A stretch of 64,000 nt of DNA from Polyangiales bacterium. Lineage in GTDB: Bacteria; Myxococcota_A; Polyangia; Polyangiales; JADJQN01. The notes under the pieces were generated by a model. The model was not told the DNA's origin and did no database searches. It saw nothing but the letters and a program-made list of their open reading frames with translations. A program made the translations under genes and the position numbers. The stretch is taken from positions 608,001 through 672,000 of the forward strand of contig CAXNJO010000002.1 of NCBI GenBank assembly GCA_964202905.1, given 5' to 3'. Positions 5,273 to 30,904 of this stretch are shown one piece after another; within the stretch, counting starts at the first letter, position 1, and each line of letters starts with the position of its first letter.

Positions 5273-6619
5273 GTGTTCAAGAAGATCCTGATCGCGAACC
5301 GCGGCGAGATCGCGCTGCGCATCATCCGCGCCTGCCGCGAGCTCGGCATCGCCACGGTCGCGGTGCACAGCGAGGTCGACGCGCAGGCGCTCCACGTGCG
5401 GTTCGCGGACGAGGCCGTGTGCATCGGCCCGGCGCCGGCGCGGCAGAGCTACCTGCACGTGCCGGCCATCATCGCCGCCGCCGAGATCACCGGCGCCGAC
5501 GCCGTACACCCCGGCTACGGCTTCCTCTCCGAGAACGCCGAGTTCGCCTCGATCTGCGCGCAGTGCGGGCTCGATTTCATCGGCCCGACCCCGGAGGACA
5601 TGCGGCGCTGGGGAGACAAGGTCTCCGCGCGCGAAGCCGCGCGGGAGTACGGGCTCCCGCTGCTCCCCGGCACCGAGGTCCTGCTCGACGCGGATCACGC
5701 GGCGTCCGAGGCCACGCGCATCGGCCTCCCCGTGATGCTCAAGGCCGCAGGCGGTGGCGGCGGCCGCGGGATGAAGATCATCCGCAGCGCCGAGGAGATG
5801 CGGCGCCTGTTCCCGCAGGCCCAGCAGGAGGCGATCGCCGGCTTCAAGAACGGGAACCTCTACTGCGAGCGCTTCGTCGAGGAGCCGCGCCACATCGAGT
5901 TCCAGGTGCTCTGCGACGGCGCGGGCGCCGCGTACGTGCTCGGCGAGCGCGAGTGCTCGATCCAGCGACGCCACCAGAAACTCCTCGAAGAAGCGCCGAG
6001 CGTCGCGGTGTCGGCGGAACTCCGCGCGACCATGACGCAGGTCATCGCGAACGCGATGCGACGCAGCGGCTACCGCTCGCTCGGCACGCTCGAGTTCCTG
6101 ATGGCCGAGGACGGCTCGCTCTCCTTCATGGAGATGAACACCCGCGTGCAGGTCGAGCACCCCGTCACCGAGATGGTCACGGGCATCGACCTCGTCGCCG
6201 AGCAGATCCGCATGGCGGCCGGCGAGGCGCCGAGCTTCGCCGACACGCTCGGCGCCGACGCGCCGATCCTCCCGCGGGGCCACTCGATCGAGTGCCGCAT
6301 CAACGCCGAAGACCCGGTGACCTACGCGCCCTGGCCCGGGCTCATCACCGAGTACCACCCGCCCGGCGGCGCGGGCGTCCGCGTCGACAGCGGCGTGTAC
6401 GGCGGGTTCCGCGTGCCGAGCCACTACGACTCGATGATCGCCAAGGTCATCACGCAGGGCCGCACGCGCGCCGAGGCGATCGCTCGGATGCGCCGCGCGC
6501 TCTCGGAGATGATCGTCACGGGGATCCGCACGAACATCTCCCTCCACCAGCGCATCCTCGAGCACCCGGACTTCGTGTCCGGCAAGCTCTCCACGCGCTT
6601 CCTCGAGCGGCTGGGGTGA
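5273..6619 (+). CDS. accC: Acetyl-CoA carboxylase, biotin carboxylase subunit
   Basis: [33 protein letters not shown] and [14 protein letters not shown]; follows accB. Confidence 0.96.
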
Positions 6620-25329: not shown

Positions 25330-26970
<1,641 letters not shown>

Positions 26971-27128
26971 GCGGCACCGCGTGTGCGCCGCGTGCGCACC
27001 GCGCCGACAGACACGCCGCAGCCGGTGAGAACGATCACGCGCGGCACCGCGGAGGGGCCTGCTCGTGAGCGCCCGCACGAGGCATCGCGCGCGCCGCACC
27101 TATCCTCGCGACCTCAAGAGGCCATTTC

Positions 27129-28556
27129 ATGTCGCTGACTGACTCCATCCCGAACAACGTCGATCTCGCCTCCGATCCGAAGCTCCTCCGCGCCCTCGAG
27201 AAGTGGCAGCCGAGCTTCCTCTCCTGGTGGCGCGACATGGGCCCCGAGGGCTTCCAGGCGGACCGCGTGTGGCTTCGCACCGCGACCAGCGTCGATCCCG
27301 ACGGCTGGGCCCACTACGACTTCGTGAAGATGCCCGAGTACCGCTGGGGCATCTTCCTCACGCCCCAGCGCGGTAATGGCGTGATCAAGTTCGGAGACAA
27401 CGCCGGCAAGCCGACGTGGGATCAGGTCCCCGGCGAGCTGCGCGGCATCCTCCGCCGCATCATCGTCACGCAGGCCGACACCGAGCCCGCGAGCGTCGAG
27501 CAGCAGCGGCTGCTCGGCAAGTGCGCGCCATCCCTCTACGACCTGCGCAACCTCTTCCAGGTGAACGTCGAGGAGGGCCGCCACCTCTGGGCGATGGTGC
27601 ACCTGCTGCATCAGTACTTCGGCAAGGATGGGCGCGAAGAGGCCGAGGGGCTCCTCGAGCGTCGCTCGGGCGACAAGGACAAGCCGCGCATCTTGAGCAC
27701 GTTCAACGAGACCACCGAGGAGTGGCTCTCGTTCTTCATGTTCACGATGTTCACGGACCGCGACGGCAAGTACCAGCTCGCCTCGCTCGCGGAGTCGGGC
27801 TTCGATCCGCTCGCCCGCGCGACGCAGTTCATGCTCACCGAGGAGAGCTTCCACCTCTTCACGGGCGAGACGGGTATCGACCGCATCGTGAAGCGCTCCG
27901 CCGAGCTCACGAAGCAGGACCCGAACGGCGACGCGCGCGCGCAGGGCGGCATCGATCTGCCGACTGTGCAGAAGTGGATCAACTTCTGGTTCTCGAGCGC
28001 CGTCGAACTCTTCGGCGGCGAGATCTCCTCGAACGCCGCGGACTACTTCGCGACGGGTCTCAAGGGCCGCTACAAGGAAGACCAGTACGCCGATCACCGG
28101 GCACTCGAGGAAATCTACGCGATCGAAGCGCTCGAGAACGGCCGCATCACGAAGCGGGAGGTGCCGCTCCGCAACGCGCTCAACGAGGTGCTCCGCGACG
28201 AGTACGTCGCCGACTGCGAGCGCGCGGTGCGCAAGTGGAACCGCACGATCGCGGCCGCCGGACTCGCGTACGAACTGACGCTGCCGAGCCGTCGCTTCAA
28301 CCGCTCGATGGGCATGTACGCGGGGATGCACTTCTCGCTGACGGGTGAGCCGATCAGCGCGGAGGAGTTCGAGGCGCGCCGCGACGCGTGGCTCCCGACG
28401 CCCGAGGACCGCGCCTTCGTGAAGTCGCTGATGGTCCCGGTCTACGAGCCGGGCCGCTTCGCGAACTGGATCGCGCCGCCCGCGCACGGCGTGAAGGGCA
28501 CGCCTGTCGAGTACGAGTACGTGAAGTTCAACGGCGCGGGCGCCGACGCCGAGTGA
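27129..28556 (+). CDS. boxB: Benzoyl-CoA 2,3-epoxidase, di-iron subunit
   Basis: IPNNV.L, WWRDMGP.GFQ, QADTEPASVEQQR, NVEEGRHLWAM and MLTEE..H. Confidence 0.95.
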   Translation: MSLTDSIPNNVDLASDPKLLRALEKWQPSFLSWWRDMGPEGFQADRVWLRTATSVDPDGWAHYDFVKMPEYRWGIFLTPQRGNGVIKFGDNAGKPTWDQVPGELRGILRRIIVTQADTEPASVEQQRLLGKCAPSLYDLRNLFQVNVEEGRHLWAMVHLLHQYFGKDGREEAEGLLERRSGDKDKPRILSTFNETTEEWLSFFMFTMFTDRDGKYQLASLAESGFDPLARATQFMLTEESFHLFTGETGIDRIVKRSAELTKQDPNGDARAQGGIDLPTVQKWINFWFSSAVELFGGEISSNAADYFATGLKGRYKEDQYADHRALEEIYAIEALENGRITKREVPLRNALNEVLRDEYVADCERAVRKWNRTIAAAGLAYELTLPSRRFNRSMGMYAGMHFSLTGEPISAEEFEARRDAWLPTPEDRAFVKSLMVPVYEPGRFANWIAPPAHGVKGTPVEYEYVKFNGAGADAE

Positions 28557-28644
28557 ACGGCCATTCAGCGCACTTGCACGGCGCGCGTCTCGCGCCGCGA
28601 TCGTCACGCACCTCGCCGCTCGCGTGCGTGCGCGCGCGGTTACG

Positions 28645-28953
28645 ATGCGCGGGGTGAACGACCCGAGCGAGACGCGCGCCGACGACGATGTGCTCTCCGT
28701 CCACTTCGGACGCAGCGCCAACTGCTCGTCGATCGGCAGCGTGGTCGACGTGCTCTTCGTGAGCGGTGTCGTGGGGACGGCGATGCTCGCCTCGGTCGCG
28801 GTGCTGCTCGGCGGCGCGCGCGAGGCGGACGCCGACGCCGATCCCGACGCGGGCGCGACGCCCGAGGCGCGCGGCGACGCGCATCGCGCCACCTCGGGTG
28901 ACGTCGCGAACGACGCCGCGGCGCGCGGGCGCGACGGGGACGCACCGCCGTGA
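28645..28953 (+). CDS. Small single-TM protein, candidate substrate/precursor of the adjacent rSAM enzyme
   Basis: About 100 aa: motif VLSVHFGRSANCSSIGS, hydrophobic helix VVDVLF..VAVLLGG, acidic tail; stop overlaps the rSAM start (GTGA); start ATG 28645 or GTG 28654. Confidence 0.7.
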   Translation: MRGVNDPSETRADDDVLSVHFGRSANCSSIGSVVDVLFVSGVVGTAMLASVAVLLGGAREADADADPDAGATPEARGDAHRATSGDVANDAAARGRDGDAPP

Positions 28954-30224
28954 AGGTCCTCCGCGCGCGCCCGGAGCGCTTCGGCGCGATCGTCGCGACC
29001 GAAGCGCCACCCGCGCTGGTGTCGGTGGGGCGTGCCCTCGCGCGCACGCTCGGCGTCGAGGGCGGCGCGCTCTGGGACGGGCCGTCGCCGGGCCTCGCGG
29101 TCGAGGCGCTGACAGGCCCGACGGAGGTGCACGTCGCGGTGACCGAGCGCTGCCCCGCGGGCTGCACCAGCTGCTACGCGGACGCGACGCCGACGGGCTT
29201 CGAGCCGCCGTTTGCGGAGGTGCGCGCGCGCCTCGACGCGCTCGCCGCCGTAGGCGCGTTCTCGGTGGCCTTCGGCGGGGGCGAGGCCGCGCTGCGCGAC
29301 GATCTGCCGGAGCTCGCCGCGCACGCACGCGCGCTCGGCCTCGTGCCCACCGTGACGACGAGCGGCCTCGGCATGACGGCGGCGCGCGCGGCGCGCTTCC
29401 GCGTCTTCGCGCAGGTCAACGTGAGCCACGACGGCGCGGCGGAGATCTACCGCGGCGTGCGGGGCTACGACGGCGCGCCGATCGCCGAGCGCGCGATCGC
29501 GTTGCTCCGCGAGGCCGGCGTGCCCGTCGGCGCCAACACGGTGCTGACGCGCGCGAGTTTCCCGCACCTCGAGGCGACGGCCGCGCACCTCGAGTCGCTC
29601 GGGTGCGTGGAGCTTCAATTGTTGCGGCTCAAACCTTCCGGCCGCGGCCGCCTCGACTACCTCGCGAAGCGCCTCGATGCGGGGCAGATCGCGGCCTTCG
29701 GCGCGACGCTCGCGCGGCTCTCGACGACACACCGCCTCGCGGTGCGGATCGACTGCGCGCTCCTCCCCTTCCTCGCCGGCTCGGGTACGACGACGCCCGC
29801 GGACGTGCTTGCGTACGGCGTGATGGGCTGCGAGGCCGGGCGCTCGCTCCTCGCGGTGCGCGCCGACGGCCGCGCCGCGCCCTGCAGTTTCTGGGAGAGC
29901 GACGCGCGCGCCGTCGGGCGCGAGGCCAACGCCGGCGATGCCGCCGCGCCGACGACGCCGGACGACGCCCTCCCGCGCGCGTGGCGCGAGGACGCGACGC
30001 TCGGCGCCTTCCGCGGCTACCAGCAGTCGCTGCCCGAGCCGTGCGCGTCCTGCGAATTCCGCGCGAGCTGCCGCGGCGGCTGCCGTATCGTCGCCGGCGC
30101 GCTCGGCGCGTCCCCCTGGGCGCCCGACCCCGAGTGCCCGCGCGTGCGGGCGCACGCCCGACCCGATCTCGATGCGCGGCCTCGACCGCGCCCGATCCAC
30201 AGCGACGGAGAACCCACGACATGA
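28950..30224 (+). CDS. Radical SAM/SPASM-domain protein
   Basis: CPAGCTSC (CxxxCxxC), GGGE, SPASM cysteines GCEAG..PCSF..CASC...SCRGGC..DPECP. Confidence 0.92.
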   Translation: MKVLRARPERFGAIVATEAPPALVSVGRALARTLGVEGGALWDGPSPGLAVEALTGPTEVHVAVTERCPAGCTSCYADATPTGFEPPFAEVRARLDALAAVGAFSVAFGGGEAALRDDLPELAAHARALGLVPTVTTSGLGMTAARAARFRVFAQVNVSHDGAAEIYRGVRGYDGAPIAERAIALLREAGVPVGANTVLTRASFPHLEATAAHLESLGCVELQLLRLKPSGRGRLDYLAKRLDAGQIAAFGATLARLSTTHRLAVRIDCALLPFLAGSGTTTPADVLAYGVMGCEAGRSLLAVRADGRAAPCSFWESDARAVGREANAGDAAAPTTPDDALPRAWREDATLGAFRGYQQSLPEPCASCEFRASCRGGCRIVAGALGASPWAPDPECPRVRAHARPDLDARPRPRPIHSDGEPTT

Positions 30225-30904
30225 GCGGACAGACGATCACGTTCCAGACCGCCTCGGGCCACGCGACCCCTGGCTACCTCGCGACCCCCGCCTCGGGCAC
30301 CGGCCCCGCCGTGCTGGTGCTGCAAGAGTGGTGGGGCCTCGTCCCCCACATCATGAGCGTCGCCGATCGCTTCGCAGCCGCGGGGTTCTTCGCGCTCGCG
30401 CCGGACCTCTACCACGGCGAATCGACGACCCACCCCGACGAGGCGGGCCGCCGCATGATGGCGCTCGACATCGCGCGCACCGGCGAGGATCTCCGCGCGG
30501 CCGCCGAGTACCTGCGCGCGCTGCCGGGCGTGTCGCCGAAGAAGGTCGGCGCGGTCGGCTTCTGCATGGGCGGCCAGCTCGCGCTTTACGGCTCTTGCGC
30601 GCACCCCGACATCATCGGCGCGCCGGTCGACTTCTACGGCGTGCACCCGAGCGTCACGCCCGCCGTAGAGAACCTCGCCGGCCCGGTGCTCGCGCACTTC
30701 GGTCGCACGGACGGCTTCGTGAACGAGCAGGTCGCGACCGAGCTCGTCGCGCGGATCCAGGCCGCCGGCAAGCAGATCGACGCGCACTTCTACGACGCGG
30801 GTCACGCCTTCTTCAACGACTCGCGGCCCGAGGCCTTCCACGCCGAGAGCGCGGCGCTCGCCTGGGATCGCACGATCGCCTTCCTTCACGCGCAGCTCGC
30901 CTGA
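30221..30904 (+). CDS. Dienelactone hydrolase family protein
   Basis: QEWWGL, APDLYHG, GFCMGG and GHAFFN; ATGA overlap with the rSAM gene. Confidence 0.92.
   Translation: MSGQTITFQTASGHATPGYLATPASGTGPAVLVLQEWWGLVPHIMSVADRFAAAGFFALAPDLYHGESTTHPDEAGRRMMALDIARTGEDLRAAAEYLRALPGVSPKKVGAVGFCMGGQLALYGSCAHPDIIGAPVDFYGVHPSVTPAVENLAGPVLAHFGRTDGFVNEQVATELVARIQAAGKQIDAHFYDAGHAFFNDSRPEAFHAESAALAWDRTIAFLHAQLA

Follow-up and report, generated by a model that had tools for sequence, protein, structure and literature searches.

An uncharacterised radical SAM/SPASM family with a dedicated membrane-anchored partner protein in a Polyangiales genome and its relatives

The window considered here is a stretch of 64,000 nucleotides from the genome of a Polyangiales bacterium (GenBank assembly GCA_964202905.1, contig CAXNJO010000002.1, positions 608,001 to 672,000 of the forward strand). 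It includes an open reading frame (ORF) for a small single-pass membrane protein and, overlapping it, the gene for a radical S-adenosylmethionine (rSAM) enzyme with a SPASM domain. Both genes are real, and their coupling is tight: the same genomes have the two, sometimes as one fused gene, and a short motif of the small protein is eroded in four genomes that lack the enzyme. We read the enzyme as a dedicated maturase that modifies the small protein, which would be retained as a subunit of an inner-membrane complex, and we hold this reading as a whole with moderate confidence. Enzyme, probable substrate, likely site, natural fusions and natural loss-of-function genomes can all be identified in one system. 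The features of the pair are as follows.

28654..28953, + strand: small ORF, 99 amino acids, GTG start; single-pass membrane protein
28690..28707, + strand: leader-like beta-strand, residues 13-18, predicted from the corresponding segment of a modelled natural fusion, which forms a strand with a pLDDT of about 89
28708..28737, + strand: conserved core G-x3-N-[C/S]-S-[S/A]-x-G, the proposed modification site; Cys24 codon at 28723-28725
28741..28812, + strand: transmembrane helix, predicted N-out/C-in from hydropathy, charge bias and interface orientation in a complex model
28950..30224, + strand: rSAM/SPASM enzyme gene, 424 amino acids; RRE-like N-terminal domain at about residues 1-55, CX3CX2C at C68/C72/C75

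Co-occurrence of the small protein and the enzyme

With E<=1e-40 as the threshold for presence, the enzyme was found in 23 of 61 related genomes, and the small-protein profile finds the same 23, including seven that lay outside the profile. A 24th match to the small ORF (G030, 2e-4) ran off frame over a phosphofructokinase-like gene and was dropped. The two genes are adjacent or fused in 18 of the 23 genomes, and 2.5-5 kb apart or on other contigs in five. Phylum-wide, 50 of 251 genomes have the enzyme and a wider small-protein profile returned those 50 plus G209 (a helix-only match); it should be noted, against taking this overlap at face value, that 24 of the 50 positives fed the search profile and 26 did not, and that the genomes are kin, so the counts overstate independence. 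Enzyme presence is mixed within some families (9 of 18, 2 of 17 and 4 of 10 members), and the pair also occurs on one Planctomycetota contig. An earlier note on this DNA, written from the letters alone, had proposed a new rSAM/SPASM modification system with a membrane-anchored substrate; of this, an uncharacterised enzyme family with a dedicated membrane-anchored partner, very probably its substrate, is supported.

Conserved motif and natural fusions

The helix of the small protein has a best 19-residue Kyte-Doolittle mean of 2.29. The protein has no family in NCBIfam or Pfam, its counterparts in other genomes (hereafter partners) show no consistent NCBIfam match, and an Atlas search gave no usable match. 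A phmmer search gives it 42 homologues, and 458 clusters formed at 50% identity match its profile. Across 128 distinct partners, gathered with a pattern that demanded both Gly and the middle Ser, the [C/S] position holds Cys in 103 and Ser in 25, and the N position holds Asn in 126. In a partial check, [N/S]-C-S-S-x-G was present in all 183 Cys-branch protein-search matches, including four outside the collecting pattern. The earlier note had given the core as F-G-x-x-x-N-C-S-S; the G-x3-N-[C/S]-S-[S/A]-x-G part stands, and the Phe does not, being present in 19 of 128 partners. Its mention of NSSS-type small ORFs beside rSAM genes proves true within this family, since 25 of the 128 read N-S-S-S.

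The small protein and the enzyme are fused in frame in 12 of the 128 distinct partners. In a quick tree of 72 enzymes, motif type follows enzyme clade: there are Ser-type groups, a clade of 11 fusions (SH-aLRT 99) and a clade of 48 with the ANCSS motif (SH-aLRT 99). Within the last, G051 is fused and its sister G219 is unfused, so that the fusion clade and this separate fusion require at least two fusion events.

Genomes without the enzyme

In its usual setting, the pair lies in an operon that encodes a TPR-membrane protein, the small ORF, the rSAM enzyme and two small membrane proteins, memA and memB. Four genomes have no enzyme orthologue, namely G052 (100% complete), G150 (99%), G209 (98%) and G015 (91%, fragmented); their best enzyme-profile matches (1e-34 to 1e-45) start past the N-terminal domain, compared with 1.9e-155 for a positive control. 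All four keep an ORF between the TPR-membrane gene and memA that encodes a hydrophobic helix (1.6-2.7) and an eroded motif. Because G150 and G209 belong to one family and have a residual NGSS in common, these are probably three losses rather than four. The motif depends on the enzyme, and the helix goes with the membrane module.

Two other loci deserve mention. In G274 (L221, ~5497-5679) only a C-terminal enzyme remnant precedes memA-memB, and no small ORF was found beside it. In G225 the enzyme position falls in an assembly gap.

Family and fold of the enzyme

The earlier note had described a full radical SAM plus SPASM enzyme, and rightly so: Pfam Radical_SAM (PF04055) scores above its cut-off (7.6e-12), as does the SPASM domain model TIGR04085 (34 vs 27 bits), with Pfam SPASM slightly below (18 vs 21.5). 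Besides the CX3CX2C motif there are eight further conserved cysteines (269, 294, 312, 365, 368, 374, 378 and 396), and these SPASM-region residues are kept in 120-121 of 121 enzyme sequences. The enzyme reaches no NCBIfam equivalog cut-off (best 88 bits vs 525). It scores 86.7 bits against the MftC model TIGR03962 (cut-off 265), 85.8 against the PqqE model TIGR02109 (381), and at most 78.6 against the NirJ/AhbC/AhbD heme-enzyme models (500-650). A small-molecule SPASM enzyme of the NirJ/Ahb kind, which the earlier note had named as one outcome that would contradict it, is disfavoured by these scores and by the structural match to SuiB given below. None of the NCBIfam or Pfam precursor or maturase models fits, in line with the earlier statement that the small protein does not match the PqqA, MftA, SCIFF, His-Xaa-Ser or XYE precursor classes. 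The nearest named relative of the enzyme is in a Sandaracinaceae assembly (76% identity), PqqE (6c8v) is the closest solved structure by sequence (E 4.9e-34), and a phage collection gave no match.

An AlphaFold model of a natural fusion (443 amino acids, mean per-residue confidence [pLDDT] 92.1, pTM 0.92) places in order a strand at residues 5-10 (pLDDT ~89), the motif loop (pLDDT 54-60), the helix (pLDDT 82-88) and a three-strand-plus-helix domain; the leader strand is ordered and the motif loop is of low confidence. The modelled fold is best matched by SuiB (Z 27.9, root-mean-square deviation [rmsd] 3.7, 375 residues aligned, model 42-434 on SuiB 1-439), and then by SkfB (Z 27.2), CteB (26.3), anSME (24.4) and PqqE (22.9). 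In the RRE-like region, three strands and helices align with the N-termini of SuiB and SkfB in whole-model alignments, and of 14 N-terminal fragments only one gave a match to MftB, a weak one (E 0.077). The leader strand would presumably pair with the N-terminal sheet of the enzyme.

The conserved operon and its membrane partners

In many distant families the operon is flanked by a gene for a purple-acid-phosphatase-family protein (PAP), often together with a porin-like gene. Among 80 metagenome loci, many of them short, the TPR-membrane gene was seen at 61, the enzyme at 60, memA at 37, memB at 10 and the phosphatase at 4. In this genome the porin, PAP, TPR-membrane, memA and memB genes form an operon on a separate contig (C8, about 97892-102694; L069:6893-11692), and there is no NCBIfam family for any of the five. 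The earlier picture of a self-contained three-gene unit making a product like a RiPP (a peptide synthesized on the ribosome and modified after translation) gives way to one in which the conserved partners (TPR-membrane protein, two small membrane proteins and phosphatase) are encoded elsewhere in the genome. A 5'-nucleotidase gene lies directly downstream of the C8 operon. Two unnamed lipoprotein-like families, with no Pfam or NCBIfam match, are encoded upstream of the operon in 13 and 6 related-lineage loci (L124:1766-3598; L128:2887-4974).

The TPR-membrane gene is present in 43 of the 50 enzyme genomes. Its copy number tracks that of the small protein in G070, G156, G075 and G100; in the last two a single enzyme goes with two copies each of the small protein and the TPR-membrane gene. 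When the small protein was modelled in complex with the TPR-membrane protein of this genome, the score was 0.61, compared with 0.00 for the best of three controls. Repeated runs gave 0.61, 0.42 and 0.63, with at least 68% of contacts in common and a partner pLDDT of at least 58. Of 157 solved pairs 116 reach the 0.61 mark, as do 2 of 215 mismatched ones; with custom alignments these figures are only rough. The modelling supports binding of the small-protein helix to the TPR-membrane protein, parallel to its third and antiparallel to its fourth helix. Loop charges in 75 homologues place the loops after TPR-membrane helices 1 and 3 inside, and from this together with the helix orientation in the complex the small protein is predicted to be N-out/C-in. 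The motif is then predicted to lie beside the periplasmic TPR domain, and the fused enzyme in the cytoplasm.

A strong memB match was found in 32 of the 50 enzyme genomes and a weak one in seven. In G070, G075 and G100 a ResA-like thioredoxin gene stands between the small ORF and PAP instead. The memB protein has four predicted helices, and His10 and His87, invariant in 143 sequences, lie on helices 1 and 3, making a heme b site plausible on the model. Its best match among membrane proteins is CydA (Z 11.8, rmsd 2.9, 139 aligned), which ranks below generic bundles; there is no Pfam or NCBIfam family for it and no significant PDB sequence or Foldseek match, and its Atlas look-alikes, in clusters that include Kaiseribacteriota members, are unnamed except for an automatic DUF2231 label. 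Distant memB-like genes occur off the operon at L075, L076 and L077 (G018, G043 and G034), one of them beside polyphosphate kinase. The operon follows ccoNOQPG in one genome (L061/G042) and a gene for a 1090-residue multiheme cytochrome in another (L054/G024).

Genetic links to phosphate

PAP is related to purple acid phosphatase by profile (E 3.8e-34), with GD, GNH and GHxH motifs present. The Tyr of GDxxY is missing from the copies inspected, so PAP is probably a PAP-like metallophosphoesterase that is not purple. The porin at the operon gives a weak phosphate-porin match, PhoD is encoded at the G052 locus, and a PhoB/PhoR-like pair (below NCBIfam cut-offs) is found directly before memA/memB or nearby in G007, G016, G025 and G033. 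At L073, L081 and L083 (G025, G016 and G033), memA-memB sits between such a pair and the gene for a TonB-C-fused TonB-dependent receptor.

In this genome, 11-bp GTCAY repeats precede the porin, PAP and the PhoB-like/pstS/phoU operon, and the GTCAC-like form is a candidate Pho box of this lineage. The regulator gene heads the pstS/phoU region (C1:549220-555117), with three GTCAC-like 11-bp repeats upstream. Such repeats were seen in 6 of 16 hand-picked porin or phosphatase upstream regions, two at doubtful positions, and among 20 repeat-carrying genes scanned only the PhoB-like regulator is phosphate-related by family. We rate the chance that the complex is tied to phosphate as about even.

Surroundings of the locus

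Other features at the locus are:

30221..30904, + strand: dienelactone-hydrolase-family gene, 227 amino acids; Pfam DLH (3e-48)
28641..28646, + strand: TACGAT hexamer, a candidate -10 element that would belong to a leaderless promoter; 7 nt separate it from GTG 28654

The small ORF, enzyme and hydrolase genes are joined by GTGA and ATGA overlaps, with boxC-boxB on one side of them and an acyl-CoA dehydrogenase gene on the other. Everything first described is present: the three ORFs with their two overlaps, the motif, the hydrophobic helix, the acidic Ala/Asp-rich tail and the TACGAT hexamer. The database gene call for the small ORF starts at ATG 28645 (102 amino acids). Our own gene caller was a home-made codon model, and at loci of lower GC it overlooked genes. 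The three ORFs each have a third-position GC of 0.92-0.93, in the same range as boxB. The boxC and boxB genes (window 25330-28556) exceed their NCBIfam cut-offs; no boxA-like ORF adjoins them in the window ORF list (the genome itself was not searched for boxA). As parts of the system the box genes were set aside, the linkage being confined to close relatives.

The hydrolase gene is a coupled neighbour here and not a conserved part, contrary to what the earlier note had entertained. Among 28 loci it accompanies the pair only at this genome's own locus, it is present at 2 of 80 metagenome and 0 of 25 phylum loci, and it was rejected as a third member because the linkage is not conserved. Hydrolase homologues (E<=1e-30) are present in 12 of the 23 genomes with the enzyme and in 10 of the 38 without it.

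The TACGAT hexamer stands where the earlier note had placed it, and the leaderless promoter proposed there is plausible on sequence grounds. Fourteen loci, all close kin, were examined for a TAnnnT hexamer: seven of them (this window and six close relatives, with varying middle bases) have it at a distance of 7 nt before the start and one at 8 nt, and it is not present in six; the background density on the + strand of the window is 0.3 per kb. A sigma-70 scanner found no full promoter. The small ORF of three close relatives (G001, G002 and G007) directly follows a gene for an M14 zinc peptidase (L001:2002-3729; L060:3317-4831; L063:5674-7368), and the M14 profile has no match in this genome. 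This genome may have lost the gene, the candidate leaderless promoter being what remains.

Proposed mechanism and alternatives

We propose that the RRE-like N-terminal domain of the enzyme would grip the beta-strand of the small protein, and that the N-[C/S]-S-S-x-G loop would undergo a radical modification on the cytoplasmic side, either ahead of insertion into the membrane or in the course of it. After that, the small protein would be inserted with the modified loop periplasmic and its helix packed against the TPR-membrane protein, within an inner-membrane complex that would often include memA and memB (the memB His being placed like a heme b site). This complex appears to be genetically tied to the periplasmic PAP-family protein and would probably serve in scavenging phosphate. 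The small protein is very probably the substrate of the enzyme. That a covalent modification takes place we consider likely, and that the product is a retained membrane subunit, not a released peptide, we think probable, with somewhat less assurance.

Several observations weigh against this proposal. The Asn of the core is swapped for Ser in 2 of 128 partners, no memB was found in 11 of the 50 genomes that have the enzyme, and one complex run with the TPR-membrane protein reached only 0.42. The motif and a fused enzyme are predicted to lie across the membrane from each other, which would require the modification to come before insertion, as it also does for sulfatases matured by anSME. In four f61 genomes (L264-L267) PAP and TPR-membrane genes are present and the small ORF and enzyme were not found, so the module can work or persist without the pair. 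Finally, the Pho-box-like repeat shows no genome-wide enrichment (45 of 4110 genes, no more than at spacings of 10 or 13) and none before the small ORF (1 of 130) or the enzyme (0 of 104). At the f61 loci PAP is followed by the TPR-membrane gene and, in three of the four, by a gene that is HAD-like by its motif.

As for the chemistry, the exchange of Cys and Ser at one position excludes a universal thioether. A review describes anSME enzymes as oxidising Ser or Cys to formylglycine, and NxxcB or TqqB as making thioether or ether cross-links (PMC10114670). C-beta oxidation of the Cys or Ser to formylglycine is our leading guess, a tentative one. Against it, motif statistics give no [C/S]xPxR signal in the partners, and Ser313 of the enzyme, invariant and directly after the AuxI Cys, presumably takes the position of the catalytic Asp of anSME. 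A cross-link inside the loop, either a thioether or an ether, as by NxxcB or TqqB, fits the Cys/Ser switch by analogy and seems possible but rather unlikely. Epimerisation, backbone cleavage or dehydrogenation is unlikely, and the absence of any modification of the small protein is doubtful. The target might just as well be the constant middle Ser.

A bolder version, which we likewise regard as unlikely, is that the enzyme equips the periplasmic loop with a protein-derived group of catalytic or redox function, either formylglycine or a new moiety derived from Ser/Asn, and that the small protein forms with the TPR scaffold, the heme-bearing partner and the Tyr-less PAP homologue a new phosphate-capture complex. 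In the fused clade the enzyme would modify itself in cis, once, before insertion.

Among the alternatives, the one that survives best, while still distinctly unlikely, is that the small protein is unmodified and serves as an anchor or adaptor holding the enzyme at the TPR/memA/memB complex, with the enzyme acting on heme for memB, on a lipid or on the phosphatase. Repeated fusion gives the 1:1 stoichiometry expected of an anchor, NirJ/Ahb heme enzymes are among the sub-threshold NCBIfam matches, and memB has its two invariant histidines. However, the inserted motif is predicted to face away from a cytoplasmic enzyme, which suits a pre-insertion substrate better, and the motif loop is of low confidence in the fusion model; in addition, memB was not found in the 11 enzyme genomes noted above and the fold is closest to RRE-bearing peptide maturases.

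A conventional RiPP, whose modified core would be excised or exported to give a diffusible peptide, tailored by the hydrolase or a peptidase, seems to us quite improbable. A leader strand, a Cys/Ser core and an RRE-bearing maturase do follow RiPP logic, and the M14 gene stands directly before the small ORF in three genomes, but no protease or exporter recurs across families, this genome has no M14 match, the hydrolase is unlinked, and the helix survives enzyme loss and is modelled as lying against the TPR-membrane protein. The RiPP-like product of the earlier note is thus replaced by what looks like a retained subunit of a TPR-membrane complex. The weakest alternative, that the modification is real and serves a function other than phosphate (e.g., envelope redox sensing or electron transfer) with the phosphatase genes as fellow travellers, draws on redox-type genes recurring beside the small ORF (memB in many lineages, the ResA-like thioredoxin in three genomes), on the cytochrome neighbours in single genomes and on a phosphatase at only 4 of the 80 mostly short metagenome loci, and is very unlikely given that a phosphatase adjoins the operon in many distant families and that PhoD, the PhoB/PhoR-like pair and Pho-box-like repeats are also found at these loci.

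Comparison with known systems

To our knowledge, the reaction of most SPASM enzymes is unknown and characterised ones mostly make soluble peptides. A literature search, going by titles and the opening of abstracts, found no description of the present system; outside its scope were subscription journals and supplements, so a brief mention is possible. If substantiated, the system would amount to a membrane module without annotation, comprising up to seven genes and present in one fifth of the genomes sampled from the Myxococcota phylum, and its chemistry may be new, since Cys and Ser are interchangeable without the anSME signal.

The PqqE and MftC models are the top sub-threshold NCBIfam matches, and PqqE is the closest solved structure by sequence, but the scores of 86-87 bits compare with cut-offs of 381 and 265. 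There are no pqq genes among the scanned neighbours. The precursor motifs of PqqA and MftA, which we take to be Glu/Tyr and a C-terminal Val-Tyr, respectively, are not present here, nor are the other pathway genes. SuiB, SkfB and CteB match the fold best, and with SuiB and SkfB the match takes in the N-terminal RRE region, but identity is about 20%, and the partners have no Lys-Trp motif and no conserved aromatic residue. Sactipeptide and ranthipeptide maturases need a donor Cys, whereas Ser replaces it in 25 of 128 partners and the Ser-type partners in the alignment shown have no other conserved Cys. Triceptide and cyclophane maturases act on cores with a conserved aromatic residue, in contrast to the 19 of 128 partners with Phe at that position.

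The resemblance to anSME/AtsB lies in action on Cys or Ser (according to the same review), in the SPASM fold (Z 24.4, rmsd 3.2, 313 aligned) and in the eight SPASM-region cysteines. Unlike in that system, the partner is without [C/S]xPxR, no sulfatase is among the recurring neighbours, and the enzyme has an RRE-like domain that anSME is without. QhpD, as PMC10114670 describes it, is an rSAM/SPASM enzyme that matures the small subunit of a larger enzyme complex, QhpC being the gamma-subunit of quinohemoprotein amine dehydrogenase; the role proposed for the present enzyme is like it in that a small subunit of something bigger would be matured. However, QhpD makes several Cys-Asp/Glu thioethers in a soluble subunit, where here there is one Cys or none and a membrane helix, and the dehydrogenase subunits are not present here. 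The pair thus falls outside each of the named families: it would work like QhpD/QhpC or anSME, and it is built like the RRE-type RiPP maturases.

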